Part shown: one piece after another, positions 14,130-31,336 of the stretch
Layout: each line of letters begins with the position of its first letter
Numbering within the stretch: the stretch's first letter is position 1
Source: Bacteroidota bacterium
GTDB taxonomy: Bacteria > Bacteroidota > Bacteroidia > Bacteroidales > JAIFNL01
Length of the DNA: 61,603 nucleotides
Reading direction: 5' to 3'
Assembly: GCA_020047755.1 (NCBI GenBank)
Contig: JAIFNL010000144.1
Coordinates: 1-61,603, forward strand
Translations under genes and position numbers: made by a program
The notes under the pieces: model-generated
Database searches by the model: none
Seen by the model: the letters and a program-made list of their open reading frames with translations, nothing else
Told to the model about the DNA's origin: nothing

Positions 14130-17045
14130 ATGAGCGAGCAATTAGTTAAATTTATCATCACACTCAAGGGAAATGAAATTAATAAATTTGCATTTTCAAA
14201 AGGAAAGAGAGTTAGTATTATTTTGGGCAAAAACAAGTCGAAAGTAGATTTTGCAGTAGAATCGAATTACGTTTCGGGTACACATTTAGAACTTATTAAA
14301 GATGAGAATGATAACCTCTTTGTCAAAGATTTGGATTCTACCAATGGAACTTATGTGAACAACAAAAGAATAACTTCGGGGCAGTTAGTTTCCATAAAAA
14401 TTAATGATATTATTTCTTTTACAGAAGGCTCAGATATTCAATTACTTGTACTTCCGCCTTCGTTTGGTAGCCAAAAATCGGAAAATAATCCCACAAATAA
14501 TTTTGTAAATTCAGAAAACAATTATGCTAATAATAAAATAAAGTCTTCTGGTAATTTCTCACAAAAAACAGAAATTGTAATAGGGCGAAATGCCGATTGT
14601 GATTTTATAATTGATAATCAAATTGTTTCGCGCCGACATGCCATTATTTTTAAAGACTCTGACGGTTTGTACACTATTAAGGACAATAACTCTTCAAACG
14701 GAACATACATCAACAATTCATTACTCACAGGAAGCCGAAAAATTAGTAATTCAGACAAAATTACTATAGGAAAACAAACATTCACCTTAAGTGATTTAAT
14801 GGGCGGAAAGGCTCAGAATTTAGCCAATCAAACACCCGATAATAGCACTAGTTTAGCCCAACTTTTGAGCAACAAAAATACCTTATTAATTGGTAGAGCA
14901 CAAACTGCAGATGTTGTAATTAACGACAACTTGGTTTCGCGCCAACACACCCGAATTACCAAGGAAAACGGAAAATATTTTGTACAAGATTTAGGTTCTA
15001 CCAACGGAACTTTTTTGAACGAAAACAGAATCCAACAAAAAGTAGAGTTAAAAGTTGGTGATGAATTACGTATTGGCTTGAAAGTGTTTAGTTTAGAACA
15101 AGCTGAAAAAGCCTTGAGCGACACAACGGCTATTCGTGCAATTAACGTAACTAAAAAGTTTTCAAATGGTTATGTGGGATTAAAACCGATGAGCGTAAAC
15201 ATTCCGAGCAGAGCATTTATTGCACTCATGGGACCTTCGGGATGCGGAAAAACTACGCTCATGAACACACTCAACGGCGACAATCCGGCAACAGGCGGAA
15301 GTGTTCATATTCACGGACTTGAGCTTACCAAGAACTATTCGATGCTAAAGCAAAAAATAGGCTATGTACCTCAAGATGACATAGTTCATAGAGATTTGAC
15401 AGTAGAAAGCTCGCTTTATTATGCTGCCAAACTGCGCATGAACCCCGACACTACCGATCAAGAAATAACGCAACGCATTGACGAAGTGCTTACTAGCCTC
15501 AAAATCAACAGAACAGATATAAGAACCAAGCCCGTAGGGAAGCTTTCAGGAGGGCAACGCAAGCGTGTTTCAATTGCCGTAGAACTTTTAAACAAACCTA
15601 CTATTTTATTTCTCGATGAGCCAACCTCACCTCTCGACCCCGAAACCATTGACGGTTTTTTAACTAGTATCAAAGAGCTTACCGAATTAGAAGAAACCAC
15701 AGTAATAATGGTTACTCACAAACCTTCGGACTTAAATTATGTGGACAGAGTAATATTCTTAGGTACAGAAGGTTATCAAGCTTTTTATGGTAGCGAAAAT
15801 GATTTATACAATCATTTCGATATCAAAGACCGAAATATTATTGGCATTTATTCGTTGCTAAGTACCAAAGAAAAAGCAAACGAATGGGGAGAAAAATGGA
15901 AAATAAAAAGCCAAACAACAACACAAGAGCTAAAAGAAGAAAAAGGTTTTGCCCAAAAACCAGAAAAAGTTTCTTGGTTTTCGCAACTCTTCTGGCTCAC
16001 CAAGCGTTATGCAAATATCAAACTCAACGACAAAGGCAATATGGCATTGCTAATGTTGCAACCCATTATTATACCACTTGCACTTATCTATTTATTTGAT
16101 AAACTGCAACTTGGAGTGCTGTTTATGATGGCAATTTCCGCCATTTGGTTTGGAGTAAGCAACGCGGCAAAAGAAATTGTGAGCGAAATTCCAATTTACA
16201 AGCGCGAACGCATGTTCAACCTGAATATTACCACCTACATGCTCTCTAAAATCTTGGTTTTATCGGTCATTGCCCTCATTCAAGTAACTATTTTCTTGCA
16301 AATTGTTCAGTTACGTTTTCTAAGCGACGAAATTCACATTGTGAATATGTTTCAAGCCACTTTTTTCTTGTTTTTATTGTCTTTTTCAGCTACTTTATTA
16401 GGTTTGCTTTTGTCAGTTATTTTTGATAATGCTGAAAAAGTAATGACTTTTATTCCAATCATTCTAATACCGCAAATTATATTTTCGGGTGTTATTGCCG
16501 ATATTGATTCTAAAGACAAAGAGCTTTTTAGTTACACCATGTTTGGACGTTGGGGAACGGAAGGACTGGCGCGAATACAAAGTGATTATACTGGTTACAA
16601 GCATATTAAATCAGATACCCTTTTAATTAAAATTTCCGAAAAACAAGACACCATTCCAACAATAGACACAATAATGCCTAATGGAATGACAATTTTAAAA
16701 GATAAAATAATATCAATACCCGAATTTAAAGACAGTATTCAAAGCGAAACTCTTATAAAAAGTGTTTATAATTCTGTTCCTGAAGTAATTATATTTTCTG
16801 ATACTTTATTAATTACTAACGATGGAAAAGACGAAAATACGCAAAATGACACAATTCCTTATAAAAAAACAGGCGATGCAAAGTTTAAAGGCGCAGACCC
16901 TTTGAAAAATTTGAAATTTTATGAAAACGCTGAACTGTTAAATAAATTCGATAGTTTAGAAAAAAATATTCTGGCAATAAGTTTGATTGATTTATTGTTG
17001 TTAATTTCAATTTATGTGATTTTAAAAAGGAAAGATACAATTTAA
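14130..17045 (+). CDS. Triple-FHA ABC exporter (FHA x3, ABC ATPase, ABC-2/ABCG-type permease, fused in one polypeptide)
   Basis: FHA1 is at about nt 14208-14420 (GKN...VSGTH...DSTNGT). FHA2 is at 14568-14783 (IGRN...VSRRH...SSNGT). FHA3 is at 14880-15086 (IGRA...VSRQH...GSTNGT). ATPase motifs are Walker A GPSGCGKTT, signature LSGGQRKR, Walker B ILFLDEPTS and H-loop VTHKP. Several TM helices follow, then a final C-terminal TM. Confidence 0.9.
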   Translation: MSEQLVKFIITLKGNEINKFAFSKGKRVSIILGKNKSKVDFAVESNYVSGTHLELIKDENDNLFVKDLDSTNGTYVNNKRITSGQLVSIKINDIISFTEGSDIQLLVLPPSFGSQKSENNPTNNFVNSENNYANNKIKSSGNFSQKTEIVIGRNADCDFIIDNQIVSRRHAIIFKDSDGLYTIKDNNSSNGTYINNSLLTGSRKISNSDKITIGKQTFTLSDLMGGKAQNLANQTPDNSTSLAQLLSNKNTLLIGRAQTADVVINDNLVSRQHTRITKENGKYFVQDLGSTNGTFLNENRIQQKVELKVGDELRIGLKVFSLEQAEKALSDTTAIRAINVTKKFSNGYVGLKPMSVNIPSRAFIALMGPSGCGKTTLMNTLNGDNPATGGSVHIHGLELTKNYSMLKQKIGYVPQDDIVHRDLTVESSLYYAAKLRMNPDTTDQEITQRIDEVLTSLKINRTDIRTKPVGKLSGGQRKRVSIAVELLNKPTILFLDEPTSPLDPETIDGFLTSIKELTELEETTVIMVTHKPSDLNYVDRVIFLGTEGYQAFYGSENDLYNHFDIKDRNIIGIYSLLSTKEKANEWGEKWKIKSQTTTQELKEEKGFAQKPEKVSWFSQLFWLTKRYANIKLNDKGNMALLMLQPIIIPLALIYLFDKLQLGVLFMMAISAIWFGVSNAAKEIVSEIPIYKRERMFNLNITTYMLSKILVLSVIALIQVTIFLQIVQLRFLSDEIHIVNMFQATFFLFLLSFSATLLGLLLSVIFDNAEKVMTFIPIILIPQIIFSGVIADIDSKDKELFSYTMFGRWGTEGLARIQSDYTGYKHIKSDTLLIKISEKQDTIPTIDTIMPNGMTILKDKIISIPEFKDSIQSETLIKSVYNSVPEVIIFSDTLLITNDGKDENTQNDTIPYKKTGDAKFKGADPLKNLKFYENAELLNKFDSLEKNILAISLIDLLLLISIYVILKRKDTI

Positions 17046-17092
17046 TTTTTTAAAATAAAATAAAATAATATAAAAATATAAAAATTTGAATT

Positions 17093-17785
17093 ATGAAAAA
17101 ATGCAACAACGGACATTATTACAATCCCGAAAAAAATAGCTATTGCCCTTATTGCCCGCAACCAGAAGGGCAAAATAATATCGACAGCAACAAAACCAAG
17201 CTTCAAGATAATAAAGGAGACAAAACCGAATTATTGGGTGGAAATAGCAGTAATCCTTTGAAAACTAGTGCTTTTGAGCCGCAAAAAAACGAACATAACA
17301 AAACACAGATTTTCGATAACAACGGTAATGAAACTGAAATATTTGACAAATCGAGCAAAAAATCAAGCGATTTTGCCGAAAGCAATCAGCAAGATTGGAA
17401 CAAAACTTACATAGGTATAAGCGAAGACGAGACAGATGACGATTTTGGTGCGCAAAAAGAAGCTCCCAGAGCACAGCGCAAACTGGTTGGCTGGCTTGTT
17501 TCATTTACAATTGACCCGCTTGGCATCGATTTTAGGCTCTACGAAGGGAAAAATATGATAGGTTCGGCACCCGGAAACGAAATTACAATACTTGGCGACA
17601 AGCTCGTTTCGTCGAAACACGCCACTATTTTGTTTAGAAATGGAAAATACAGATTAAAAGACGAATTTTCGACCAACGGAACCTATTTAAACGGTTCAGA
17701 CCTTGACGATGAAGTACTTAACCTTACTGACGGCGATATTATAAAAGTAGGTTCTACTCTGCTAAAATTCCGCTCGGCGTTTTAA
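17093..17785 (+). CDS. Zinc-ribbon, disordered linker, FHA protein
   Basis: N-terminal CNNGHYYNPEKNSYCPYCP (CxxH...CxxC ribbon). The middle is low-complexity and rich in N/K/S/E. The C-terminal FHA reads IGSAPGNEITI...VSSKHATI...FSTNGTYLNG. Confidence 0.8.
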   Translation: MKKCNNGHYYNPEKNSYCPYCPQPEGQNNIDSNKTKLQDNKGDKTELLGGNSSNPLKTSAFEPQKNEHNKTQIFDNNGNETEIFDKSSKKSSDFAESNQQDWNKTYIGISEDETDDDFGAQKEAPRAQRKLVGWLVSFTIDPLGIDFRLYEGKNMIGSAPGNEITILGDKLVSSKHATILFRNGKYRLKDEFSTNGTYLNGSDLDDEVLNLTDGDIIKVGSTLLKFRSAF

Positions 17786-17862
17786 ATTTTAATTTCTTTT
17801 GGTATTTTTTCTTAAAAGATAATTAATTAAAAGATTAATTTAAAATTATAAAAATATAAGTG

Positions 17863-19494
17863 ATGAAAAAGCTAAAAATTACCTTATTTTTTATTTTAAC
17901 TGTACTTTTTGCATTTTCGCAACAAATAGGAAAAGTAAGTAAAGTAAATGTGGATAAATTTCCGAAAGTAGAATTTACATTAAATTTATACAAACCTGAT
18001 GCTAAGGAAAATAAAGATTTTGAAATTTTTGAAAACCAGCAAAAAATTCAATTTACTTTTAGCAGAACAAATGCGCCCATTGCCGATACTCAAAAGCATA
18101 TTTTGATACTTTTTGAAGACATGACTCATACATCTCATGCCCTGCAACGCGAATATTTTCAATATGTTCTGGAAAATTCACTGCCCAAGTTTGTGAATAA
18201 AGGCGATAAGGTAAATATAGCCGTTTTTGACAGAAACAGAGGAAGTGAAACTTCTTTGCGCTTTTTGTTGGAAAACTATACCGACGATGTGGAGTTGTTA
18301 AAAAATGCAGCTAACACATTTAGAAGTATTTACGATGAACATAGCAACCAAAAAAGTTCAGAACTTTACGACGCGCTAGACGATGGAATGGCTGATTTGC
18401 ATGAAAAGTTTCCCAATAAAAATACCTTCATTTTGGAACTTTCGGCAGGTTTCAATTTAAGCGCGAACAATGCTATAACGCAAGAAGGCTTAATTGCGAC
18501 CTCGCGCGAGTACAGAATACCCATTTACTCAGTGTATTACAACATTTACGACAATAGAACAGACAACGATTATGCAGAGAAATCGTTTGGATTGTTTTTT
18601 CTTTCAGACAAAAGCAGAAACGATAAAGATGCTGCAAAAGAGAAAGTTATAGAATTTATGACCAATGCTTTAAAGCGTCATTATGGATTTAACTACACTT
18701 TTAGTTACGATACAAAAGTAGAACAAGACGGAAAATTGCATACTGTTTCGATAAAGGTTGATGGACAAGCAATTGAGGAAAAATTTCAAGCACCAGCTTG
18801 CGATATTGCTTGTTTCATAAAAAAGAATACAATTTTAGTAGCTTTAATTCTAATTATTATCATTGGTTTTATTATTGGGCTCGTTCTTTTTTTGAAAAAG
18901 AAAAAAGAAAAAGAATTAGCCTTGCAAGCTGAAAAAGAAGCTCAACAAACAGAAAAACTTAGGCAAATAGAGATTCAACGCCAAAAAGACAAGGAAGAAC
19001 AAGTAAAAAAACAAGAGCTACAACAACTTGAAAATGAGCGTTTAGAGCAAAAAATGCGCGAAGAGCGTGAAGAACAGTTGCGTTTTCAACAACGTTTGGA
19101 AGCTGAAAAACTTGCAGAACAGCGTCAGCATGAACAACAACTACTTGAAAAACAACAAGAAGAACAAAACAAGCGACTCACAGAAGAAATGCGCAACAAC
19201 CGCGGAGGTTTCCCTTCGTTGAAAATTGTTTCGCATGGATTGAACAAAGATTTTGTAATAAATAAGCCTATTATTTCTTTTGGAAGAGAAAAACATTTAA
19301 ACGATTTCTTTTTGCAAGAACCCACAGTTTCGGGCAAACATTTTGAAATTCAATATTTTGGAGGTGATTATTTTATTCAAGATGTAGGAAGCACCAATGG
19401 AACAAAAATAAATGGCATGGCAGTTCGTAGGCACAAACTAAAGCACAACGACATTATTCAAGCCGGAAAAGCACAAATGATGTTTGTTTGGTAA
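17863..19494 (+). CDS. Signal peptide, vWA-like domain, TM helix, Q/E/K/R coiled coil, C-terminal FHA
   Basis: Signal peptide MKKLKITLFFILTVLFAFSQQ. The vWA-like strand/helix pattern has a degenerate MIDAS: HILILFEDMTHTS, KVNIAVFDRN, SELYDALDDGMADL, FILELSAGFN. The TM is ILVALILIIIIGFIIGLVLFL followed by KKKKEKE. About 100 aa of coiled coil follow. The FHA reads FGREKH...VSGKHFEI...GSTNGTKING. The vWA call is inference. Confidence 0.75.
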   Translation: MKKLKITLFFILTVLFAFSQQIGKVSKVNVDKFPKVEFTLNLYKPDAKENKDFEIFENQQKIQFTFSRTNAPIADTQKHILILFEDMTHTSHALQREYFQYVLENSLPKFVNKGDKVNIAVFDRNRGSETSLRFLLENYTDDVELLKNAANTFRSIYDEHSNQKSSELYDALDDGMADLHEKFPNKNTFILELSAGFNLSANNAITQEGLIATSREYRIPIYSVYYNIYDNRTDNDYAEKSFGLFFLSDKSRNDKDAAKEKVIEFMTNALKRHYGFNYTFSYDTKVEQDGKLHTVSIKVDGQAIEEKFQAPACDIACFIKKNTILVALILIIIIGFIIGLVLFLKKKKEKELALQAEKEAQQTEKLRQIEIQRQKDKEEQVKKQELQQLENERLEQKMREEREEQLRFQQRLEAEKLAEQRQHEQQLLEKQQEEQNKRLTEEMRNNRGGFPSLKIVSHGLNKDFVINKPIISFGREKHLNDFFLQEPTVSGKHFEIQYFGGDYFIQDVGSTNGTKINGMAVRRHKLKHNDIIQAGKAQMMFVW

Positions 19495-19577: not shown

Positions 19578-21578
19578 ATGGATATATTTGATATAAAGAA
19601 AGATGTATGCAATATAACGCATGAAGGCAAAGTAAGACCTAAAAATGAAGATAATCAGGGATATACTTACACGTCTAACGGTCATATTTTTGTGGTTTGC
19701 GATGGAATGGGCGGGCATGTAGGCGGGCAAGTTGCCTCAAATATAGCCGTTGAAAGTATTATTGAGTATTTTGCCTCGGATAAAAAGCCAGATATATATG
19801 TGGCTATGTGTGAGGCTATTGAGTACGCTAATCGTAATATTTACGAGCGTTCGAGGCAAGATACTAGCTTGGAAGGTATGGGCACAACTGCGGTTTTACT
19901 AGTTATTCAAAACGAAAACTCGTACATAGCGCACGTGGGCGACAGTCGGATTTATCTGCACACCAGCGGGCAGTTGCACCGAGTTACCAAAGACCATTCG
20001 TATGTGCAAAGTTTAGTGGATAATGGCACTATTTCTGACGACGATGCCGAAAGACACCCTCGTAAAAATGAGCTAATGAGAGCATTAGGTATTAGCCCAA
20101 AAGTAAAAGTAGAAGTGGCTTCGCAGCCCATTAGAACAAAAAACGGCGATACTTTTTTGCTATGCAGTGATGGTTTGAATGGCATGGTGAACGACATGAC
20201 CATGGAAGCTACGCTAAATAAAACGCTTAGTATTCAGCAAAAAGGCGAAGAACTTTTGCAGTTTGCACTAAATGCCGGCGGAAAAGACAACATTACTTTG
20301 TCGTTGATAGAAATAAGCAAAAGTCCAAACCCAAAAACTTATTTTATATCGAAATCACCTGAACGTAAGGAAATTCCGGTAACTAATCCCGACATTAAAT
20401 ACACAAAAACACTTGGTGGTAGCGAATTTGGCGAAATAGACACGCAAAAAACCGAAAATCTTTTAAATATAAACAACCAACAACAAGAGCTACCTCTGAA
20501 AAACGAAATAGCAAAAGACACAATAAATAAAGATAACAAAAAAAAGAAAACCTTTTTTATGCTATTGGGAGGAGTAGCTTTTGTTTTATTACTTATTGTT
20601 GGACTGTATGTTACAGGAATTATAGGCTCAAAACCTTACCAGGTTCTTATTTTGAAAGAAAAAGGAAAATTTGAACTTGGAAATTTTGCCACTTTAGACG
20701 AAGCAAAAGAGGAAGCCAGAAATTATATAGAACAAAAGAAATTAAAAGGTAAATTTGAAATTTGGTACATAAAAAATAAATTTGCCAATTTAGAATTTGA
20801 AGAAGACCCAAATTCAACAGTAATTTCAACAGAATCAGGAGATAACAAAACATCTCTTACACAAAATAATAAAAAAGTTTTAATGCCCGAAGGCATTGGC
20901 TGGAAAGCTTTGTACGAAGAATATGGAGTATGTAAATGCTATATTATAGAAGTGAACGACCCAAAGTTGTTTGGTAAAAATAATAGCCTCAAAGCCAATA
21001 CTTCGTACATAATTCCGCTCGATTATTCGAGTAAAGAAGAATACAATCCCAAAAACTATCAAAAATATTTACCGGAAAAAGTGGGTTACGATAACAACGG
21101 AGATTGCTCAAAAATAGGTAAGCAATGTGGAGGCACTTCGGCAACAAACTCAACAAAAGTAACTGATAATAAGACAGAAACAACAACGGAAGAGAAAAAA
21201 GACGACAAGACCGTAACTGACGACAAAACAGATACCAAAATTGAAGAAAAAAAGGAAGAAACAAAAAAAGAATTGACTTACGAAGAAAAGAAAGCGGCTG
21301 CAAAAAAAGATTATGATGAAGCATTTACAAAATATGAAGCGGCAAAGAAGGTAACTATAACAGCAGAAGCAGAGTATAAAAAAATATCAGAAACCAATTT
21401 TCCAATTATAAAAGAAGAAAAGAAAAAAACGGAAAAAAAGCAGGATGCAGAAAAAATAGAACGATTAAACAATGAAATAAGCATAGCAAGTAAAAAGCTA
21501 AAAGATGCTCAAACTGCCGAAAAAACAGCAAAAGCAAACTTAGATAAGGCAAAAATTGAATTGGAAAAGTACAAATAA
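19578..21578 (+). CDS. Membrane-anchored PP2C-family Ser/Thr phosphatase with a large extracytoplasmic C-terminal region
   Basis: PP2C motifs NEDN, VCDGMGGHVGG, GTTAV, HVGDSRIY, LLCSDGL, GGKDNITL. The TM is FFMLLGGVAFVLLLIVGLYVTGIIG after NKKKKT. About 315 aa follow, ending in a K/E/T-rich coiled-coil tail. Confidence 0.9.
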   Translation: MDIFDIKKDVCNITHEGKVRPKNEDNQGYTYTSNGHIFVVCDGMGGHVGGQVASNIAVESIIEYFASDKKPDIYVAMCEAIEYANRNIYERSRQDTSLEGMGTTAVLLVIQNENSYIAHVGDSRIYLHTSGQLHRVTKDHSYVQSLVDNGTISDDDAERHPRKNELMRALGISPKVKVEVASQPIRTKNGDTFLLCSDGLNGMVNDMTMEATLNKTLSIQQKGEELLQFALNAGGKDNITLSLIEISKSPNPKTYFISKSPERKEIPVTNPDIKYTKTLGGSEFGEIDTQKTENLLNINNQQQELPLKNEIAKDTINKDNKKKKTFFMLLGGVAFVLLLIVGLYVTGIIGSKPYQVLILKEKGKFELGNFATLDEAKEEARNYIEQKKLKGKFEIWYIKNKFANLEFEEDPNSTVISTESGDNKTSLTQNNKKVLMPEGIGWKALYEEYGVCKCYIIEVNDPKLFGKNNSLKANTSYIIPLDYSSKEEYNPKNYQKYLPEKVGYDNNGDCSKIGKQCGGTSATNSTKVTDNKTETTTEEKKDDKTVTDDKTDTKIEEKKEETKKELTYEEKKAAAKKDYDEAFTKYEAAKKVTITAEAEYKKISETNFPIIKEEKKKTEKKQDAEKIERLNNEISIASKKLKDAQTAEKTAKANLDKAKIELEKYK

Positions 21579-21594
21579 TGCAAAATAATAAGAA

Positions 21595-22404
21595 ATGTAT
21601 CCATTTGTAAAAGAAAATTTAGAAATAAAGCGTGAATTAGGACGTGGCGGAACGGCAGCAGTTTACTTGGCTTGGGACAAGTGGGCAAAAAAGCAAGTTG
21701 CTATAAAAGCCTTATTTAAAACACGTTACGAGGATAGAATGATTCGCGAAAAATTCAAACAAGAAGCCAATTTGTATCTTTACCTCGAACACCCCAATAT
21801 AGCCGATTTGACCGATTACATTGTAACGCCCGAAACGGATTATATCGTGATGGAATACATTCAAGGCATTAATTTAGAGGAATATATACAAACCAAATCG
21901 GGACCAATTGCCGACGAAAATTTGTTCAAAATATTTACGCAAATATTGCACGGTGTAGCTTATGCTCATCATCAAAAAGTTACGCATTTAGATATAAAAC
22001 CAAGCAATATAATGGTAACTAATGACCTAATAGTGAAAATTTTAGATTTTGGAATTTCGTCCTCGAAAGATGAGAAAATAGAAAATGCCAAGCGCAGAAT
22101 GGGCACGCCCATGTACATGAGCCCCGAGCAAATAGATATGAAAAATGTAGGCAGACAAAGCGATATTTATTCGCTGGGAGTAACTCTACATCACATGGTT
22201 ACAGGTCAATTGCCTTACAAAGGCGGCTCGATAAAAGAAATTTTTCATAAAATTAAGAACGAAAAATTGCCTAAAATTAGAGATATTTATCCTCATGCAA
22301 ATATAAAATTGCAACCAATAATAGATGCTGCAACAGAGAAAAATTTGCAAAAGCGATACAAAACATGCGAAGAATTTGAGTATTTTCTTTCGCAAGCAGT
22401 TTGA
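21595..22404 (+). CDS. Soluble Hanks-type Ser/Thr protein kinase (kinase domain only, non-RD)
   Basis: LGRGGTAAVY (G-loop), VAIKAL (Lys), HLDIKPSNIMV (HLD instead of HRD), ILDFGIS (DFG), GTPMYMSPEQ. 269 aa with no TM. Confidence 0.9.
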   Translation: MYPFVKENLEIKRELGRGGTAAVYLAWDKWAKKQVAIKALFKTRYEDRMIREKFKQEANLYLYLEHPNIADLTDYIVTPETDYIVMEYIQGINLEEYIQTKSGPIADENLFKIFTQILHGVAYAHHQKVTHLDIKPSNIMVTNDLIVKILDFGISSSKDEKIENAKRRMGTPMYMSPEQIDMKNVGRQSDIYSLGVTLHHMVTGQLPYKGGSIKEIFHKIKNEKLPKIRDIYPHANIKLQPIIDAATEKNLQKRYKTCEEFEYFLSQAV

Positions 22405-25041: not shown

Positions 25042-26019
25042 ATGAAAATCAATATTTTACTAATTTCAGCTCTTGTGCTATTGGCTTATGCGTGTGGCGG
25101 TAATTGTGCCGAAGAAAATGCTAAATTAAAAGACCAAATAGCTGAATATGAGCAACAAGAGCAACTAACAGCCTTGGCAATGAACGATTACGATGCGCAG
25201 ATAAAAGAATACAAAACCAAGGACGACTCGCTAAAAATGTTTCGCGATTCTATTGATATTATGACAAATAAAATGCGTTCGAGTGGGAAAGCTAGTGCTG
25301 GCGATAACAAAGCAATGAATAAATACGTAAATGAAATGCGGCGTATATTAGCTGAGAATAAGAAACTTACAGCAGATTTAAGTCAATATGTAGATAGTGC
25401 CGACATTGGAGAAAATCCGGCATTAGTTGTAAAGGTTTTGGCTCAAAACTTAGAAACCAAAGAACGCGAAATAGCTGATTTACAAAAACAAATAGAAGAA
25501 CTCCAAAAAGAAGTAAAAGGCTTAAAAGTTGAATTGACTGTAATTGCCGAAGAAAAACAAAACCTAGAAACCGTAAATCAAGATCTTTCTAATAAAAATG
25601 AAGAGCTTACAGAAGAAGTTAAAGTACTGAAAATAAGCAAAATAACTAATGCAATTTTTAATAAAAACGGAAAAGATATTACAGATAATAAAGTAAAACT
25701 TTATAATTCAATCAGCACATTAGAAGTTTGTTACACATTAGAAAAAAATAAATTTGCTGAAGTTGGAAATCATAACATTTACATTTGCATAATAAAAAAT
25801 GGAACAATTTTAACCAATTCTTCGTCCAATCTTTTTAGTGCAGAAAATGGAAAACAGCTAGGCTATACTATAAAATCAAATGTAAATTACAAAGGTGAAT
25901 TAATACGAACTTGTTCAAAATGGGAAGTTGGCAATAATAAAATAGAAAAAGGATCGTATGAAATTATAATTTATGATGAAAAAGGACGAAAAATAGGTAG
26001 CGATTTATTTAGTTTATAA
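25042..26019 (+). CDS. Lipoprotein with an N-terminal coiled coil and a C-terminal beta-rich domain
   Basis: Lipobox LLAYACGG. There is a heptad-like charged region of ~170 aa. No recognised family. Confidence 0.55.
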   Translation: MKINILLISALVLLAYACGGNCAEENAKLKDQIAEYEQQEQLTALAMNDYDAQIKEYKTKDDSLKMFRDSIDIMTNKMRSSGKASAGDNKAMNKYVNEMRRILAENKKLTADLSQYVDSADIGENPALVVKVLAQNLETKEREIADLQKQIEELQKEVKGLKVELTVIAEEKQNLETVNQDLSNKNEELTEEVKVLKISKITNAIFNKNGKDITDNKVKLYNSISTLEVCYTLEKNKFAEVGNHNIYICIIKNGTILTNSSSNLFSAENGKQLGYTIKSNVNYKGELIRTCSKWEVGNNKIEKGSYEIIIYDEKGRKIGSDLFSL

Positions 26020-26102: not shown

Positions 26103-27686
26103 ATGATAGGTCGAATTATACAAAATTATGAAATATTGCGTTTAATTGGCGAAGGCGGAATGGGAAACGTATATGCAGCAAAGCATGTTCATTTAGACAA
26201 AATTGCGGCAATTAAAATATTGAAAATTGAAACAAGCAAGCACAAAGATGCTTTGGCACGCTTTGAGAAAGAAGCAAAAACACTTAATAAACTAAGACAT
26301 AAACATATAGTAGAACTTTTTGATTATGGAGTAAGCAACGAAATTCCATACATTATAATGGAATATATTGATGGAATACCTTTAGATGAATACATCAAAA
26401 CAAAATCAGGTCCTATTCCTGAGGAAAAAGCAAGTAAATATACGCTCCAAATACTTACAGCACTGGAAATTGCGCACATCAATGGCATTATTCACCGCGA
26501 CATAAAACCATCAAATTTTATCCTTACAAAGAATGATGATATTAAAATATTAGATTTTGGTATAGCCAAAATGGTTTCGGAAACAGAAACTCATCAGCTC
26601 ACAAAAATAGGTCAAGGTATTGGTACTCTGCCTTATATGAGTCCTGAGCAAATTTATATGAAAAATATAACAAATGCCATAGATATTTACGCGCTAGGTG
26701 TTTGTTTGCATCAAATGATTACTGCAAAAGAGCCTTACGATTTGGGTTTGTCGCGAAGAGAAATTGAGGATAAAATTTTAAAAGAACCTTTGCCTCGCAT
26801 AAAAGAATTTTACCCTTTTGCTAGCGATAAAATACAAGCAATTATTGATAAAGCAACAGAAAAAGAAATTCAAAATCGATACAAAAATTGCCATGAATTT
26901 GCTGAAGCGTTAAAAAATAATAAGGTAATAGAAACGGAATTAATCGAAGATTTTTCAAAAACATTGAAATTTGAAGAAAAACCGAAAGAAATAATTGAAA
27001 ATAAAATAGATACAGTAATTTCTATTGAAAAAGAAATACCAAAAATAAATGAAAAAAAATCGAATTCATTTTTATATGTTGGTATATTTGTTGCAATGAT
27101 TTTAATTATCTTCGGTATTTTCATTTTTGCAAAAGAAGAATACCGCGTGAAAATAGAAAAAAATAATACGGTATTTTTTGAAAAAAAATATCCTGATAGT
27201 ACTGAAGCTATAAAAGTAGGAAAACTTGAACTAGAGAAATGTGAAAATGAAAGCGAATTGACAGTAAAAAGCAAAGATGAACTTATTTTTAGGCTAGTGA
27301 AAACAGAAAAAATAGAAGGAAATGAAGCTGAAACTATAGAACAACCAGAGCAAAAGCCTGAAAATAATATAAATACGGTAGCTACAACAACTACCGAGAA
27401 AAAAAGTTCGGTTCAAATATTTACGCCAACTTCATTTCAAGATAACTTTAGAATTTTGGCAAATAAAAACTACGATTATGCTTCGAGGCAGGCGCATTTA
27501 GAGAAATTTTTGAAAGAATTTACTTCCGATGCAGCCGTTTTGGTTTATCAAAATGGGGAAAAAGTTGAAACAAAGGGTATTAAAGAATATCTACAAGCAA
27601 TCATGTTTAATGGAAAACAAGTAAAAGTTTCGGTAACACAAAAAAGCGGTTCGCTTGTTCGAGATATAGAAGTTGTTGAAAATTAA
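26103..27686 (+). CDS. Transmembrane Hanks-type Ser/Thr kinase with an extracytoplasmic C-terminal domain
   Basis: IGEGGMGNVY, AAIKIL, HRDIKPSNFIL, ILDFGIAK, GTLPYMSPEQ. The TM is FLYVGIFVAMILIIFGIFIFA. A ~180-aa C-terminal region of unknown family follows. It is a close paralogue of 23445-25016. Confidence 0.9.
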   Translation: MIGRIIQNYEILRLIGEGGMGNVYAAKHVHLDKIAAIKILKIETSKHKDALARFEKEAKTLNKLRHKHIVELFDYGVSNEIPYIIMEYIDGIPLDEYIKTKSGPIPEEKASKYTLQILTALEIAHINGIIHRDIKPSNFILTKNDDIKILDFGIAKMVSETETHQLTKIGQGIGTLPYMSPEQIYMKNITNAIDIYALGVCLHQMITAKEPYDLGLSRREIEDKILKEPLPRIKEFYPFASDKIQAIIDKATEKEIQNRYKNCHEFAEALKNNKVIETELIEDFSKTLKFEEKPKEIIENKIDTVISIEKEIPKINEKKSNSFLYVGIFVAMILIIFGIFIFAKEEYRVKIEKNNTVFFEKKYPDSTEAIKVGKLELEKCENESELTVKSKDELIFRLVKTEKIEGNEAETIEQPEQKPENNINTVATTTTEKKSSVQIFTPTSFQDNFRILANKNYDYASRQAHLEKFLKEFTSDAAVLVYQNGEKVETKGIKEYLQAIMFNGKQVKVSVTQKSGSLVRDIEVVEN

Positions 27687-27748
27687 TCATTTAATGTTTA
27701 TATTCACAAAATAAATAGATTTAGAATTTTAAAATAACAAATAAATAT

Positions 27749-28348
27749 ATGAAAGAGCTTTTACTTATACTCTTGTTATTAAATTGCGGGATTACTTATT
27801 CTCAACATAAATTTAATTTAAAATCGGAAGATAATTCTAGCTCTTCGGGAACGATAGAACTGAGCGAAGAAAGATACGAAGCATTCAAAAAACGCTCACT
27901 TGAGAAGGTTACTGACTTAGGAAATTACATCATTTCGTTGACAGACAAATCAATTCCCGCAGAACAAGGCAAAATAGTTGTTAATCTGGCTGTTAGCTTA
28001 TTTCAAGATGAAGAGAAAGTTGTAGAAATTTCGTCAAAAACAAGTACTCAAGTGCAACAATTGAAAGTAAGGGCATACTTCAATAAACTGAGAGTACTCA
28101 AATACAGCAAGGTAGATATTCAATGGTACGATATTCAATACGTTTCAAATTTACGCTTGGGTAGCGATGGCAGTTATTACGGAGTTATTACAGTTTTTCA
28201 AAAGTTTACTGGTTTTAGTGGCGATAAAATTGCCTATACCGATATAACTCAAAAAAATATTGAAATCAAAGTAATGCAAGTAGCAACAGTAAGAGGTTTG
28301 GACTGGGAAGTATTACTAGGAAACATTTCAGTAGTTGAAACTAAGTAG
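27749..28348 (+). CDS. Hypothetical exported protein
   Basis: Signal peptide MKELLLILLLLNCGITYSQ. No recognised family. Lies inside the co-directional array. Confidence 0.5.
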   Translation: MKELLLILLLLNCGITYSQHKFNLKSEDNSSSSGTIELSEERYEAFKKRSLEKVTDLGNYIISLTDKSIPAEQGKIVVNLAVSLFQDEEKVVEISSKTSTQVQQLKVRAYFNKLRVLKYSKVDIQWYDIQYVSNLRLGSDGSYYGVITVFQKFTGFSGDKIAYTDITQKNIEIKVMQVATVRGLDWEVLLGNISVVETK

Positions 28349-28380
28349 CTAAATAGAATAAAAATTAAATATATTTTTTT

Positions 28381-29304
28381 ATGAAACAAATTTATTTATT
28401 TGCCTTTTTTATTACTTTTTTTACTTATTCATATAGCCAAATTTCAATCAATTCGGAAGAGAAAATAAATGAGGAAACTCAAATTTTTAAATATAAAGTG
28501 AAATTGCTTGATGATTTTATGGATAGATTCAATTATGAAAGAAACTTTGAAGGTGAAAAAATAAAAAATGATGATTCATTTAAGTACGATAGAGCTTTTA
28601 TGCTAAAATCGCTTTTTGAATATGAATATTATTTGAAGGACAGCTCGTTAGCACAAGAATTTACACAATGGATATTGAAAAATAATATAACTCTCGATTT
28701 TTATTCAAATAATTGGTATTCAGTGGCTAATGCAACTATTTTGTACAATAAAATTTCGTACTCAGCAGATTTGAAAATGCAAATCGAATCAGAAACGAGC
28801 GATAGACGTGCAAAATGGGTAATTAAAGATGTGGCTGCTCCTTTTTTGAATGTAGAAAAGCAAAATACCAATTTATTTATTCATCCTGTAGCACACGAAA
28901 CTAATTTTATTTCGCTATCTGAGGCTTTTAATAATAGTCAAGATATTTTTGAATACACAGATTCTAACTTTGTAACCAGCGAGTTGAATATTTTTTTATT
29001 TTTGGTAAAAACAAAACAACTAACGCTAACCAAAATAAACGAAGTTAGCTATATTTTTGATCTTCAAAATTGGTCATTTGAGGTAAGAAACTATAATAGA
29101 ATGCAATACAATTCTGGTTGGTTAATTTGTCAGTTGAAGAAAACCAAAAACGTTGAAATAACAACAACAGAAAAAAAAGAGTCTGGCATTGGCAATTCTG
29201 AAAAAGTAAACTCGGAAAATGAACAAACAGAAAAAATTGATAATCAAGTGATAGATGTAAATAACGGAAATTCAACAAAAACGGATAAAAAGAAGAGAAA
29301 ATAA
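28381..29304 (+). CDS. Hypothetical exported protein
   Basis: Signal peptide MKQIYLFAFFITFFTYSYSQ. The tail is low-complexity (E/K/N/T). No recognised family. Confidence 0.5.
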   Translation: MKQIYLFAFFITFFTYSYSQISINSEEKINEETQIFKYKVKLLDDFMDRFNYERNFEGEKIKNDDSFKYDRAFMLKSLFEYEYYLKDSSLAQEFTQWILKNNITLDFYSNNWYSVANATILYNKISYSADLKMQIESETSDRRAKWVIKDVAAPFLNVEKQNTNLFIHPVAHETNFISLSEAFNNSQDIFEYTDSNFVTSELNIFLFLVKTKQLTLTKINEVSYIFDLQNWSFEVRNYNRMQYNSGWLICQLKKTKNVEITTTEKKESGIGNSEKVNSENEQTEKIDNQVIDVNNGNSTKTDKKKRK

Positions 29305-29350
29305 TCAATTTTAGAAAAAACTGAGTGTAAAAATTTTAATTTGAGAAATC

Positions 29351-31336
29351 ATGAACTATTTTAACTTAAAAAAACTGTACCTTTTACTATCATTTTCTTT
29401 ATTTGTAAACATATTATCAGCTCAAAATGAGGGAGTAATAAGCTTAGACATGGAAAATGATTTGAAAGAAAAAGCAAGAACAGCTGTTCAAACTTACTAC
29501 GATGGGTTAATGATAATTGGAAGTTTGCAAGAAGCAAGCGAACGCCAACAATTTCAGCAAGATGCTCTTACATTCTTTGAACATAGAAACGTTCAGGTTT
29601 TCAATGATTTGAGTGAAGGTTCGCGAACTATAACAGTAGAGCGCTATGTTGAAAATATTCCAATTATATACCCGAAAACGGATTTTTTAATCGAAGGTTT
29701 GGTCGAAAACTTGAGTAATTCAACCCTTTATTACAATGAAAACTCGCTTTTGGTTAAGGTTGTTGTAAATGTGTCAATCAAAGGTACAAACAACAAAGGC
29801 GAATGGGTAAACAAAGCCAATAAGCTAAATGCTTTTGTGAAATATATAAAAAATGGGGACAGAATTAACACTTCTCCAAAGATTTTTAATATATTGGAAA
29901 ATGACGATTACGATGGCGACAAACTTAGTGGGTTCAAGCCCATAATCGTTTCGACAAGCGAAGTAAATACCTCATATACAGCTGATAATACGGAATATAA
30001 CGAAAAAATGCGTGTTATAAAAGAAACGGAAGCTCGTTTAGCCGAAGAAGAAGAAAGCATTAGAATACGAAAAGAAGAATTGGCAAGGCGCGAAATGGAA
30101 TTAGAAGACGAAAAATATATTGCAGAACTAAAAAGACAAAAAGCTGAACAAGAGAGAATTGAAGCAGAACGACAAAAAGAAGAAGCTCGTATAGCAAAAG
30201 AACAAGCCGAACGCCAACGCATTGAAGCTGAGCGACAAAAAGCTGAAGCTGAAGCAGCACGCTTGAAAGCCGAACAAGAAGCTTTGCTTTTGAAAAGTGA
30301 GCGTTTTGTATTCAACGTAGGTGCAGGACTTTATAAGCATGTTGGTCTTTTTGAGCAAGTTGTGAATAAGCAAACTCCAGAGCAAAGTCTTTTTGCCACC
30401 CAAATAAATGCCATGCTTGGCTATCGTTTTGATATTAACGTGAATAACAATTCAGCACGAAAAATAAACAGGGGAACTATTGTGGCTGCTTTTGGACGTT
30501 ATGGAATAAATTCGCAAGACATTGTCAATTCTAATAATTTGAACCAAAACTTGCAAATCCCTGAAGATAAGCTCGAACCCATTTACAATCATTACATGGA
30601 ATTGGAAACTGGTTTTGTTTTCTCCGAACTATTGAGAACTAGCTTTGGTGTTGGAAAACAAAACGATAAGAAATATTTTGTATCCACTTTGGCTTTAAAT
30701 ATAAATTTCGGCAAATTGATTTGGGAAATTGGCGCAACGGCAATGTTTGGCAAAGATTTCCAAAAATTGCAAATACGTCCGGCAACTTCATTGGCTTTTC
30801 AATTCAACGAGCGCAATCCACAACATTTGAAAGAACCAAAATCTGGTTTTTTAAGCTTTGAATTAAATCCTGAAATAGCTTATAATGTGCCTATTAGCTC
30901 CATTAAAGGCTCTGCTGCAACCAATTCTATGTCGTACCAAACTAACGCATTTTTGGGTTTTAAAATAGGAAAAAGGTCAAAAATTGGAGCTTTTGGAACT
31001 TTTGGAATAAATCCGAATGCAATATCTCAAAACATATTAGAATCAAACGAGTTACAATCTTCTTATACGCTCAACGGCGACTACAATCCCTACGCTGGTA
31101 TCGAAGCTGGTATTTTATTAAAAGGCTTCCGGATTTCATACGGAGTTGGTGAATTTAGCTATCTTAATCGTGTCAATTTACCATATCAAAGTATGACTTT
31201 GGGAGTAGATGTGGCTCTTTACAGAGTACTTCGTTTTACCCTAAATACTTCAACCTTAATACTTAATAGCGATTACACCCGCCCTTTACTTAGAATATCA
31301 TCGGGTTTGGCGTTACGTTTTAATTATGTTCGATAA
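29351..31336 (+). CDS. Exported protein: N-terminal globular domain, ERQKAE-type coiled coil, probable C-terminal beta-barrel
   Basis: Signal peptide LLLSFSLFVNILSAQ. The coiled coil contains a duplicated IEAERQK segment (near 30155-30180 and 30218-30243). The last ~330 aa show alternating hydrophobic/polar beta-strand-like segments rich in G/Y/F/N, consistent with an outer-membrane barrel (inference). Confidence 0.55.
   Translation: MNYFNLKKLYLLLSFSLFVNILSAQNEGVISLDMENDLKEKARTAVQTYYDGLMIIGSLQEASERQQFQQDALTFFEHRNVQVFNDLSEGSRTITVERYVENIPIIYPKTDFLIEGLVENLSNSTLYYNENSLLVKVVVNVSIKGTNNKGEWVNKANKLNAFVKYIKNGDRINTSPKIFNILENDDYDGDKLSGFKPIIVSTSEVNTSYTADNTEYNEKMRVIKETEARLAEEEESIRIRKEELARREMELEDEKYIAELKRQKAEQERIEAERQKEEARIAKEQAERQRIEAERQKAEAEAARLKAEQEALLLKSERFVFNVGAGLYKHVGLFEQVVNKQTPEQSLFATQINAMLGYRFDINVNNNSARKINRGTIVAAFGRYGINSQDIVNSNNLNQNLQIPEDKLEPIYNHYMELETGFVFSELLRTSFGVGKQNDKKYFVSTLALNINFGKLIWEIGATAMFGKDFQKLQIRPATSLAFQFNERNPQHLKEPKSGFLSFELNPEIAYNVPISSIKGSAATNSMSYQTNAFLGFKIGKRSKIGAFGTFGINPNAISQNILESNELQSSYTLNGDYNPYAGIEAGILLKGFRISYGVGEFSYLNRVNLPYQSMTLGVDVALYRVLRFTLNTSTLILNSDYTRPLLRISSGLALRFNYVR

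Follow-up and report, generated by a model that had tools for sequence, protein, structure and literature searches.

Twelve consecutive open reading frames, all on the plus strand, occupy positions 14130–31336 of the 61.6-kb stretch of DNA analyzed here (the window). The gaps between them measured 47, 74, 83, 16, 36, 23, 25, 83, 62, 32, and 46 bp from ORF1 to ORF12, bearing out the closely packed array with 16–83 bp gaps that an initial annotation had described. Pfam confirmed the six FHA domains called on four proteins (three in ORF1 and one each in ORF2, ORF3, and ORF6) and backed the assignment of ORF1 as an ABC exporter and of ORF6 as an FHA-RDD protein. Pfam, catalytic motifs, and TM prediction agreed on one TM-anchored PP2C phosphatase (ORF4) and three kinases, two of them TM-anchored (ORF7 and ORF9) and one soluble (ORF5, no TM). 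The exported ORFs without a recognizable family, previously counted as five, number four (ORF8, ORF10, ORF11, and ORF12). The array and the two genes upstream of it are as follows.

12071–12922, minus strand: LEA_2 lipoprotein (Pfam)
12945–13799, minus strand: exported M48 metallopeptidase (Pfam)
14130–17045, plus strand: ORF1, 971 aa, three FHA domains, ABC_tran, and ABC2_membrane (Pfam)
17093–17785, plus strand: ORF2, 230 aa, CHCC Zn-ribbon, linker, and C-terminal FHA
17860–19494, plus strand: ORF3, 544 aa, signal peptide, vWA-like ectodomain, TM, coiled coil, and FHA
19578–21578, plus strand: ORF4, 666 aa, PP2C, TM (327–345), and extracytoplasmic region
21595–22404, plus strand: ORF5, 269 aa, soluble Hanks kinase (Pkinase, 4.6e-54)
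22441–23421, plus strand: ORF6, 326 aa, FHA (8.4e-18) and RDD (5.2e-24; Pfam)
23445–25016, plus strand: ORF7, 523 aa, receptor Hanks kinase (Pkinase, 2.1e-53; TM 384–402)
25042–26019, plus strand: ORF8, 325 aa, lipoprotein (lipobox LAYAC)
26103–27686, plus strand: ORF9, 527 aa, second receptor Hanks kinase (Pkinase, 2.4e-53; TM 323–341)
27749–28348, plus strand: ORF10, 199 aa, exported orphan
28381–29304, plus strand: ORF11, 307 aa, exported orphan
29351–31336, plus strand: ORF12, 661 aa, signal peptide, alpha/beta domain, coiled coil, and beta-rich C-terminus

ORF3, ORF4, ORF7, and ORF9 each have a single predicted TM, and the predicted topology, with all FHA and catalytic domains in the cytoplasm and all unknown domains facing the envelope, matches the cytoplasm/envelope division proposed initially. 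ORF2 is a core gene and the first in the core. Its N-terminal Zn-ribbon call was supported by a CxNGHYY...CPYC motif that is conserved across the family; a disordered linker of ~120 aa follows, in which three T[EQ][IL][FL] motifs (T45, T71, and T81) are concentrated as candidate docking sites, and then the FHA domain (Pfam, E 1.1e-14). In this branch, Gly-Ser replaces Gly-Arg in the ORF2 FHA domain. Within ORF1, FHA2 and FHA3 have the canonical GR...SRxH...NG residues, and FHA1 has GK instead. The missing phosphate-binding Arg in ORF2 and the Gly-Lys of ORF1 FHA1 thus suggest that some of these readers may be weak or non-canonical.

The operon family is defined by its hub protein, ORF3. A signal peptide is followed by an ectodomain composed of a beta-sandwich and a divergent vWA domain, a TM (325–343), a charged coiled coil, and a cytoplasmic C-terminal FHA domain (Pfam, E 5.4e-17). 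The vWA-like call was supported by fold rather than by Pfam: Foldseek searches with an AF2 model (pLDDT 81.6) matched the vWA domains of ITIH1, integrin beta-3, TRAP, and TFIIH p44 (E 1e-9 to 1e-7) and also returned FHA structures, among them FHA-1 of Rv1747 (6ccd) and the FHA domain of ArnA (5a8i). The MIDAS is non-canonical, with [IVL]L[IF]L[WF]EDM in place of DxSxS, making ligand binding by this vWA domain speculative. The hub family comprises ~232 clusters at 50% identity; a C-terminal FHA domain is present in 162 of 166 representatives and a TM near residue 320–340 in 154 of them.

ORF4 and ORF5 are core genes as well. The cytoplasmic PP2C domain of ORF4 (Pfam PP2C and PP2C_2; 264 bits against the NCBIfam Stp1/IreP model NF033484, for which the cut-off is 230 bits) has all of the metal-binding motifs DGMGG, DGL, and GGKDN, and its extracytoplasmic region ends in a Lys/Glu-rich tail. 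Judged by motif, the three Hanks kinases are catalytically intact, as ORF5, ORF7, and ORF9 all keep the VAIK-type Lys, H[RL]D, DFG, and SPE. ORF5, a kinase of the non-RD type (HLD), is 86% identical to its counterpart in the related locus L001 and 63–67% identical to those in L009 and L017, and distant loci also carry a soluble kinase of ~285 aa. ORF7 aligned over its full length with L001 (69% identity); its ectodomain of ~120 aa matches no known family. The ORF9 ectodomain (~185 aa) is not conserved even in L001, where the match is restricted to residues 1–276.

ORF6, in which an N-terminal FHA domain is joined through a helical linker module to the RDD membrane domain, is one of several membrane-anchored FHA clients. 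Its synteny is kept in L001, L003, and L009, and the equivalent slot elsewhere holds an FHA-DUF805, FHA-DUF4190, or FHA-PQQ protein. A published account describes RDD domains as having a cytoplasm-facing intramembrane site and as occurring in lipid-carrier and exopolysaccharide contexts (PMC12419801). ORF8, which lies between kinases 2 and 3, consists of a coiled coil followed by a C-terminal beta domain, and its L001 counterpart (66% identity) is assigned to DUF8428 (PF28532) in newer Pfam. ORF8 is conserved only in the closest relatives.

We compared the array with 55 related loci, in which the core could be traced down to ~25% identity. The genes were syntenic rather than scattered: ORF1–9 are colinear in L001 (71% identity), and the ORF2-ORF3-ORF4-kinase-FHA core was found in the 55 loci. 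The invariant core runs from Zn-ribbon-FHA through signal peptide-vWA-TM-FHA and TM-PP2C to soluble and receptor kinases and membrane-anchored FHA proteins. In 51 of 53 loci, the gene immediately before the hub gene encodes the Zn-FHA protein; downstream of the hub gene, a PP2C gene was present in 30/30 loci and a kinase gene in 28/30. The core is retained in L003, L005, L009–L011, and L015–L017 and in each of the 26 distant loci that span at least 9 kb, and gene order held across ~25% identity and GC contents of 0.29–0.53. In the close relative L012 (61–88% amino-acid identity), the same chromosomal site retains nothing of the array but the PP2C catalytic domain, ORF8, and ORF12, with ORF8 beside ORF12, indicating that the system is dispensable. 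A literature search found no paper on such an FHA/PP2C/kinase operon in Bacteroides, Bacteroidales, or Bacteroidetes, in keeping with the initial statement that no characterized Bacteroidota equivalent was known.

The FHA-tagged partners of this core differ among lineages and include the ABC exporter, a subtilase, an FtsK-like ATPase, beta-propellers, DUF805, DUF4190, and RDD proteins. ORF1 (three N-terminal FHA domains, E 9.5e-56 in Pfam, followed by an ABC NBD, an ABC-2 membrane domain, a large external loop, and a last TM) has a type V, ABCG/ABCA-like membrane domain; the PDB chains nearest to its NBD are ABCA/ABCG, and its NBD-first ABC-2 architecture resembles that of ABCG/ABCA lipid exporters. 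The initial annotation had suggested this exporter as the output of the system, a role that does not hold generally: the 3xFHA-ABC exporter accompanies the core only in the branch comprising L001, L005, L008, and L009, and no ABC exporter adjoins the core in L003, L010, L011, or any of the 26 distant loci of at least 9 kb. ORF1 is therefore a branch-specific FHA-tagged client, and export regulation is at best one output. Where distant loci have a large FHA-tagged gene, it encodes an FHA-subtilase (S8) or an FHA-FtsK-like ATPase. In L005, a kinase-DUF805 gene lies beside an FHA-DUF805 gene and a kinase-PQQ gene beside an FHA-PQQ gene; such matching argues that a sensor module held in common brings each writer to its reader.

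On balance, and with somewhat better than even confidence, we infer that ORF1–9 (14130–27686) are a member of a conserved, uncharacterized Bacteroidota operon family encoding a membrane-bound phospho-threonine signaling hub. Its core members here are ORF2, ORF3, ORF4, ORF5, one or two receptor kinases (ORF7 and ORF9), and FHA-small-membrane-module proteins (ORF6). With its variable FHA-tagged partners around this core, the operon is in our reading a form of the known kinase/PP2C/FHA type. Envelope or surface-polymer homeostasis is the likely physiological field. The receptor kinases would sense the periplasmic or envelope state, probably together with the ectodomains of ORF3 and ORF4, and would phosphorylate Thr residues, with the ORF2 linker (at its three T-x-x-hydrophobic motifs) and the juxtamembrane and inter-FHA linkers offering candidate sites. 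FHA domains would then dock on pThr and gather FHA-tagged membrane proteins around the hub, so that the clients, in this lineage the 3xFHA type-V ABC exporter and the RDD protein, may be switched on or clustered until the PP2C resets the system.

Such client control has a precedent in Mycobacterium tuberculosis, where PknF regulates the FHA-ABC exporter Rv1747 by way of the exporter's FHA domains. ORF1 shares with Rv1747 the layout of N-terminal FHA, NBD, and ABC-2 domains and a position beside Hanks kinases. However, ORF1 comes from Bacteroidota, has three FHA domains rather than two, and belongs to an operon of nine genes that also encodes a PP2C, three kinases, and three further FHA proteins; across the operon family, the ABC exporter is dispensable. 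The Sulfolobus Arn proteins also pair a Zn-finger-FHA protein (ArnA) with a vWA protein (ArnB) under kinase (ArnC/D) and phosphatase control, but that system is archaeal, cytoplasmic, and soluble and controls archaellum expression, whereas the vWA domain here is periplasmic and shares a polypeptide with its own FHA domain, the two joined by a TM. Deinococcus radiodurans DRA0331–DRA0334 likewise combine a vWA protein, a TM-STPK, FHA, and PP2C in one operon, although this operon has four genes, a separate vWA protein, FHA fused to PP2C, a link to DNA-damage kinases, and no membrane clients (bioRxiv 10.64898/2026.01.23.701218). The "vWA+FHA/PP2C/kinase ternary class" named in the initial annotation differs from the ternary systems of Kaur et al., 2020, which are vWA-MoxR-VMAP systems with FHA as a sporadic effector domain and mostly inactive kinases (PMC7159879). 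Those systems resemble the present operon in combining a vWA protein with variable effector-like partners, but the operon lacks a MoxR AAA+ or VMAP protein. No Tss, RodA/PBP, or MoxR genes were present, upholding the absence of Tss, RodA, and PBP genes noted earlier, and the locus does not qualify as a T6SS, division, or vWA-MoxR one.

A fixed core with effector-like partners that vary by lineage also speaks for an alternative that we consider unlikely, in which the operon serves in biological conflict (anti-phage or inter-bacterial), its kinase/PP2C/vWA sensor-switch acting on attack through FHA adaptors that recruit interchangeable effectors (the ABC exporter, subtilase, and FtsK-like or STAND-like ATPase). 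Defense-type genes neighbor the operon in three loci (encoding a caspase-like and a 3xTIR-WD40 protein in the window, two AAA_35 ATPases in L001, and, in L053, type I R-M components), the system was lost in L012, and kinase/phosphatase defense modules such as KKP exist (PMC11341870). However, PADLOC returned generic kinase and ABC matches only and no system, the partners are mostly small membrane modules and not toxins, and the flanking genes are mostly housekeeping (H+-PPase, MgtE, C69 peptidase, MM-CoA mutase, murB, uvrA, and secDF); conservation of gene order over the range of identity and GC content noted above is unusual in defense islands.

Quite unlikely, in our judgment, is a Bacteroidales counterpart of the actinobacterial FhaA/FhaB-PstP-RodA-PbpA-PknA-PknB cluster that regulates cell-wall growth or division and not export. 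Both have, within one operon, a pair of small FHA proteins, a PP2C anchored by a TM, and a pair of TM Hanks kinases; in L001, the gene immediately after kinase 3 is murB, which in the window is found 11 kb downstream; and distant loci encode fusions of FHA to an FtsK/SpoIIIE-type ATPase. Other loci, however, do not retain the murB adjacency, and the present cluster lacks RodA/FtsW, PBP, and PASTA domains (the PknB_PASTA model scored 300 bits, with a cut-off of 450) and gave FhaB-model scores below cut-off for ORF2, ORF3, and ORF6. It differs further in carrying a vWA hub and membrane clients tagged with FHA. The dispensability seen in L012 also argues against this role.

The initial annotation had suggested that all twelve genes form a trans-envelope machine, with an FHA/kinase layer connected through lipoproteins to an ORF12 barrel and the ABC exporter as output; we regard this version as highly improbable. 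In its favor are the tight spacing of the twelve genes on one strand and the placement of ORF12 directly after ORF8 in L012 and L014. ORF12 has a signal peptide, an N-terminal alpha/beta domain, an ERK-rich coiled coil (~215–315), and a beta-rich C-terminal 340 aa whose beta-amphipathicity equals that of the AlgE barrel control, although a soluble beta protein scores equally high. An outer-membrane barrel is possible, but the AF2 model (pLDDT 35) does not establish the fold; it is confident for the coiled coil only, which is real as annotated. Only ORF1–9 belong to the unit: ORF10–12 are absent from all relatives that retain the core, including L001, whose ORF1–9 are intact, and the ABC exporter is missing from most of the family. 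Neither ORF10 (Pfam, NCBIfam, PADLOC, and PDB) nor ORF11 (family and PDB searches) gave a match, and neither has a counterpart in any related locus compared. ORF10–12 are lineage-specific neighbors, and nothing supports membership of ORF10 or ORF11 in the system. The one ORF12 homologue found is 77% identical, and in one relative ORF12 travels with ORF8 and a downstream HK/RR unit.

A threonine-phosphorylation checkpoint of a Bacteroidota T6SS has a very slight probability: the Pseudomonas aeruginosa PpkA-PppA-Fha1-TagQRST pathway has the same component types (a Hanks kinase, a PP2C, an FHA reader, an envelope-sensing periplasmic vWA domain, a lipoprotein, and an ABC-type component) and a TssR gene lies ~6 kb from the core on the opposite strand in L003, but the vWA domain here is fused to an FHA protein and not to a kinase, the TagH/VI_FHA model reached 27–36 bits against a 120-bit cut-off, and Tss genes are absent from the window and were noted in no other locus by operon-derived queries and partial Pfam annotation, as distinct from Tss models.

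The M48 and LEA_2 genes form a pair upstream of the operon, divergent from it, and are branch-specific neighbors: neither was found in distant loci, and one or both also adjoin the core in L005, L010, and L011.

The initial annotation described twelve consecutive plus-strand ORFs (ORF1–ORF12, 14130–31336) separated by 16–83 bp; ORF calling bore this out, with measured gaps of 47, 74, 83, 16, 36, 23, 25, 83, 62, 32, and 46 bp. An AT-rich 330-bp gap lies between the array and a divergent gene for an exported M48 peptidase, and 242 bp lie between ORF12 and the gene pair that follows it, a HisKA_3 kinase and a LuxR regulator. Scans of the gaps for sigma-70 promoters, terminators, and the Bacteroidetes −7 motif TAnnTTTG were uninformative. 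All of the FHA, ABC, PP2C, kinase, and RDD domains called previously were confirmed by Pfam.

Domains confirmed in the array (plus strand)
ORF1, exporter: three FHA domains, ABC_tran (351–500), ABC2_membrane (619–814)
ORF2, Zn-ribbon protein: C-terminal FHA (window 17525–17785)
ORF3, hub protein: C-terminal FHA
ORF4, TM-anchored phosphatase: PP2C (also NCBIfam Stp1/IreP, 264 bits against a 230-bit cut-off)
ORF5, ORF7, and ORF9, kinases: Pkinase
ORF6, membrane protein: FHA and RDD

The VAIK-type Lys, H[RL]D, DFG, and SPE motifs are retained by all three kinases, and DGMGG, DGL, and GGKDN by the ORF4 PP2C. Hydropathy analysis gave one TM helix each for ORF3, ORF4, ORF7, and ORF9 and none for ORF5. 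The canonical GR...S-x-x-H...NG/TG pocket is present in four of the six FHA domains, the non-canonical ones being ORF1 FHA1 (Gly-Lys) and the ORF2 FHA domain (Gly-Ser). From these sequence features, the operon is predicted to encode writers and an eraser with intact catalytic motifs and many readers, all cytoplasmic, with the domains of unrecognised function outside. NCBIfam returned nothing specific: the only matches above cut-off were Stp1/IreP on ORF4 and an FhaB model on ORF1 (178 versus 125 bits), the latter rejected as an artefact, since it adds up the scores of three FHA domains. Exported ORFs lacking an assigned family number four (ORF8, ORF10, ORF11, and ORF12) rather than the five first counted, and the lipoprotein ORF8 is not an unassigned gene of the tail, as it sits between kinases 2 and 3 and its counterpart in L001, a 71%-identity relative, is DUF8428 in newer Pfam. 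All-against-all phmmer and blastp comparisons detected no paralogy among ORF4C, ORF7C, ORF9C, ORF8, ORF10, ORF11, ORF12, the ORF1 loop, LEA_2, and o181.

Relatives were sought with ORF3 as the system-specific probe. A word-indexed protein database contained only about 23 relatives, and a profile of 42 diverse hub proteins brought nothing out of it beyond the known close set. Scanning 185,579 species genomes with two branch-specific peptide motifs gave five carriers, all Bacteroidales MAGs (one labelled Paludibacter propionicigenes). Exhaustive phmmer with the ORF3 ectodomain alone recovered 232 representative clusters (50% identity), of which almost all measure 490–550 aa; among 166 inspected clusters, 162 had a C-terminal FHA domain and 154 a TM segment near residue 320–340. 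A metagenome scan with twelve distant hub members, queried as a tight 12-sequence alignment, added 45 further loci.

Homologues of the array genes proved to be co-located and not scattered. ORF1–ORF9 are colinear in L001, where murB directly follows kinase 3. At 28–41% identity, a string of Zn-ribbon–FHA, hub, and PP2C genes is always present (L003, L005, L009, L010, L011, L015, L016, and L017), followed, where the contig is long enough, by one or more kinases and FHA-membrane proteins, with the remainder varying. The distant loci were annotated by ORF calling, phmmer with window queries, and Pfam on samples. Tallied over the family, the hub gene is immediately preceded by a Zn-ribbon–FHA gene in 51 of 53 loci, and among the loci having at least 6 kb downstream of the hub, a PP2C gene follows in 30/30 and a Hanks kinase in 28/30. 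The window operon likewise carries its TM-PP2C (ORF4), kinases (ORF5, ORF7, and ORF9), and N-terminal-FHA protein (ORF6) on one strand. FHA proteins number one to nine per locus, and GC content ranges from 0.29 to 0.53. The distant-branch locus L059 can be placed in Bacteroidota because its flank contains SusD-like and T9SS-CTD genes.

Across the operon family, the core is fixed and its FHA-tagged membrane partners are interchangeable. Only the branch of the window (L001, L005, L008, and L009) has the ABC exporter beside the core, and it is not adjacent to the core in L003, L010, L011, or any of the 26 distant loci of at least 9 kb; the exporter, first proposed as the output of the system, is one lineage's client. 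The large FHA-tagged gene of distant loci, where present, is either a membrane-anchored subtilase (FHA-TM followed by a fervidolysin prodomain and subtilase S8) or an FtsK-like ATPase.

Large FHA-tagged genes of distant loci
L015, 7341–9623: FHA-TM-fervidolysin prodomain-S8
L018, 7931–10189: FHA-TM-fervidolysin prodomain-S8
L026, 10896–13151: FHA-TM-fervidolysin prodomain-S8
L036, 13413–15491: FHA-TM-fervidolysin prodomain-S8
L027, 17317–20619: FHA-FtsK-like ATPase
L033, 9673–12966: FHA-FtsK-like ATPase
L039, 8884 onward: FHA-FtsK-like ATPase

The FHA-TM-S8 proteins are probably periplasmic proteases with a cytoplasmic pThr reader. The FtsK-like proteins, which close the operon in all three of their loci, are ~1100 aa long, with an N-terminal FHA domain, one FtsK/SpoIIIE-type P-loop domain, and weak nSTAND1 similarity; unlike EssC/EccC, they are soluble and lack TM helices. 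In the small FHA proteins, FHA is combined with RDD, DUF805, DUF4190, a PQQ-like propeller, or one to three TM helices. In L005 (9089–18403), FHA-DUF805 adjoins kinase-DUF805 and FHA-PQQ adjoins kinase-PQQ, and these matched pairs suggest sensor modules common to reader and writer. The helical linker module of ORF6 (residues 114–175, window 22780–22965) recurs behind a kinase domain in L017 (6322–6513; 52% identity by tblastn), as if domains had been shuffled between readers and writers; BLASTP gave no alignment between this linker and the ORF7 juxtamembrane region. An operon kinase in L059 is fused to an FGE-sulfatase domain. The ORF9 ectodomain is not conserved even in L001.

The hub protein has a signal peptide, a divergent vWA domain, a single TM segment, and a C-terminal FHA domain. 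An AlphaFold2 model of ORF3 built on 15 homologues (pLDDT 81.6) matched vWA domains of ITIH1, integrin beta-3, TRAP, TFIIH p44, and SpaC in Foldseek searches (E = 1e-9 to 1e-7), and its C-terminus matched GarA/OdhI-type FHA domains. The modeled ectodomain is thus a divergent version of the vWA alpha/beta fold, and the earlier vWA-like call holds at the level of fold and not by Pfam, which gave no VWA match, or by metal-site motif. The canonical MIDAS (DxSxS...T...D) is absent from ORF3, which has EDMTHTSH for DxSxS and LSAG for TDG, and the MIDAS-region Ser positions are not conserved across the hub family. ORF3 shares with the family the motif [IVL]L[IF]L[WF]EDM, which closes the vWA beta-1 strand. 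The adjoining ORF2 gene, 74 bp upstream, encodes a Zn-ribbon (CxNGHYY..CPYC), a linker, and the FHA domain. The phosphate-binding Arg of this FHA domain is replaced by Ser in the window, L001, L005, L008, L009, L016, and L017; the pocket Arg is kept in 37 of 48 family members. Three T[EQ][IL][FL] motifs (T45, T71, and T81) occur in the disordered ORF2 linker, and such motifs are nearly absent from the other eleven proteins.

The initial interpretation survives as a conserved pThr operon and not in its extent of twelve genes or its choice of exporter as output. In our reading, which with its mechanism included is somewhat more likely than not to be correct, the locus is a hub-centred, envelope-spanning pThr signalling operon of nine genes; the identity of this system is much firmer than how it works. 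Receptor kinases ORF7 and ORF9, perhaps aided by the ORF3 and ORF4 ectodomains, would answer an envelope cue, and the kinases would then phosphorylate Thr residues. FHA domains prefer a hydrophobic residue at pT+3, and the fit of the three ORF2 linker motifs to this preference makes them the best candidate sites. FHA docking would build a membrane complex of ORF1, ORF3, and ORF6, which in the window's lineage may control or cluster ORF1, a type-V (ABCG/ABCA-like) exporter, with PknF/Rv1747 as precedent, and the ORF4 PP2C would reset the system. Like Rv1747, ORF1 fuses N-terminal FHA to an NBD-first ABC-2 half-transporter and is encoded near Hanks kinases, here three; by analogy, we infer that its activity may be governed by cognate-kinase phosphorylation read by FHA. 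RDD domains have been reported to possess a cytoplasm-facing intramembrane site and to occur alongside genes of lipid carriers and exopolysaccharides (PMC12419801), a context that fits an envelope or surface-polymer role.

A more speculative and less likely version is that the operon serves, Bacteroidota-wide, as a modular 'FHA socket', in which a periplasm-sensing vWA/kinase/PP2C hub would write pThr marks that recruit whichever FHA-tagged effector the lineage carries, be it an ABC exporter of lipids or glycans, a periplasmic subtilase with a membrane anchor, or an FtsK-like motor. Kinases and FHA readers would have matched sensor modules in common. Such a socket would achieve by phosphorylation what adaptor domains achieve in effector recruitment, and it might answer envelope damage or attack; to our knowledge, nothing of the kind has been described in bacteria.

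We weighed four other explanations against the hub-centred signalling operon. A conflict or defence system with interchangeable effectors would account for the variation of effector-like partners between lineages and for the defence-type neighbours at three loci (TIR-WD40 and caspase-like in the window, AAA_35 in L001, and type I restriction-modification in L053), but the gene order is unusually stable, PADLOC on ten proteins yielded no defence system and only generic kinase (PD-T4-6, mad6) and ABC matches, and most flanks are housekeeping genes, as Pfam found for the distant loci L020, L022, L023, L024, L027, L053, L055, and L059 plus the region upstream of L027 (counted as nine). We regard this explanation as unlikely. 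Regulation of division or the cell wall, as by FhaA/FhaB-PstP-PknAB, fits the parts list and the adjoining murB in L001; it is nonetheless quite improbable, as the Pfam results contain neither RodA/FtsW nor a class B PBP, in line with the initial annotation, and PASTA is lacking, the PknB_PASTA model scoring 300 bits versus a 450-bit cut-off with the kinase domain alone matched.

A literal twelve-gene trans-envelope machine is very unlikely, as it fails on the distribution of the ABC exporter and on ORF10–ORF12, which lie outside a conserved unit of nine genes (ORF1–ORF9, 14130–27686). ORF10 and ORF11 have no counterpart at any related locus compared, no family match in Pfam, NCBIfam, or PADLOC, and no PDB match. 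ORF12 has a single homologue (77% identity), and an AlphaFold2 model made with it reached pLDDT 35, with the coiled coil alone confident. The outer-membrane barrel first called probable for ORF12 is here a candidate only: the beta-amphipathicity of the ORF12 C-terminus equals that of the AlgE-type barrel encoded downstream, used as control, but a soluble all-beta LEA_2 protein scores higher still, and a PDB sequence search with this region gave nothing meaningful. In the genome of the homologue (L012, L014), ORF12 comes directly after ORF8, and the genes beyond it match those of the window (HK/RR, AlgE-like porin, Pst, and murB). L012 (1–14704, GCA_973680205.1; 61–88% amino acid identity) occupies the corresponding chromosomal site, again preceded by the o181 lipoprotein gene, and represents a decayed or a minimal form of the locus; that it keeps only the 265-aa PP2C catalytic domain, ORF8, and ORF12 indicates that the system is dispensable and can decay. 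Several L012 genes look frameshifted. For annotators, the caution is that three of twelve tightly packed genes fall outside the conserved unit.

A T6SS phosphorylation checkpoint is scarcely credible and was dropped, because the window ORFs scanned lack any Tss family (TssB/C, Hcp, VgrG, TssK), as the first reading had held, and the Fha1/TagH model (TIGR03354) scored 27–36 bits versus a 120-bit cut-off.

The signalling operon is made wholly of known part types. Its closest known relatives in design are Rv1747/PknF, the T6SS PpkA/PppA/Fha1/TagQRST proteins, the actinobacterial division cluster, Sulfolobus ArnA (Zn-finger-FHA)/ArnB (vWA), and the Deinococcus DRA0331-0334 vWA/STPK/FHA/PP2C operon. 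The 'ternary class' of vWA+FHA, PP2C, and kinase systems named previously does not correspond to the systems of Kaur et al., which are vWA-MoxR-VMAP (PMC7159879), with a MoxR AAA+ ATPase and a VMAP partner adjoining the vWA gene; Pfam found no AAA+/MoxR gene in the cluster. A full-text literature search found no description of a Bacteroidota equivalent, as anticipated, and the operon is a conserved envelope-spanning pThr signalling system without a characterised counterpart. Signalling by Hanks kinases, PP2C phosphatases, and FHA domains has been studied in depth in Actinobacteria, Firmicutes, Myxococcus, and the Pseudomonas T6SS. The empty search marks a gap for Bacteroidota, a phylum dominant in the gut and the environment. 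The locus delimits a conserved operon family that is unusually rich in pThr readers, with as many as nine FHA proteins in one operon; the family has its own vWA-TM-FHA hub proteins, in ~232 clusters (50% identity), and FHA-tagged membrane partners that are interchangeable. If the mechanism holds, one phospho-code would wire an exporter, a protease, and an ATPase to the same sensor, and the operon would make envelope sensing in Bacteroidales accessible to genetics.

Several features of the surroundings are recorded here. M48/LEA_2 neighbours occur in four loci of the window's branch; the distant branch has neither these genes nor the 181-aa lipoprotein gene of the window.

Neighbouring genes of the core
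Window, 11498–13799 (−): exported M48 metallopeptidase, LEA_2 lipoprotein, 181-aa lipoprotein
L005, 3110–4009: M48 and/or LEA_2 (Pfam)
L010, 150–1878: M48 and/or LEA_2 (Pfam)
L011, 688–1518: M48 and/or LEA_2 (Pfam)
Window, 6186–10976 (+): 1596-aa protein with TIR domains (three) and WD40 repeats (about 11 or more)
Window, 2387–3481 (+): caspase-like Peptidase_C14
Window, 21–1157 (−): FGE-sulfatase-domain protein
Window, 27749–38700: ~11-kb block, extra relative to L001 (20255)
L053, 574–7322: full type I restriction-modification system (HsdM, HsdS, HsdR) and DUF4062
L003, 15694–15869 (−): TssR (Bacteroidota T6SS-iii)

The three window genes between 21 and 10976 are of conflict or programmed-death type and lie just upstream of the cluster. 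The ~11-kb block falls between kinase 3 and murB; besides ORF10–ORF12, the HisKA_3 kinase, and the LuxR regulator, it encodes a porin of the Alginate_exp family and a phosphate ABC system resembling PstS/PstC. The TssR gene lies ~6 kb from the core on the other strand and is the sole T6SS gene noted near any locus in a non-systematic annotation of neighbours. In L053, a 233-kb contig, the restriction-modification genes directly precede the operon.
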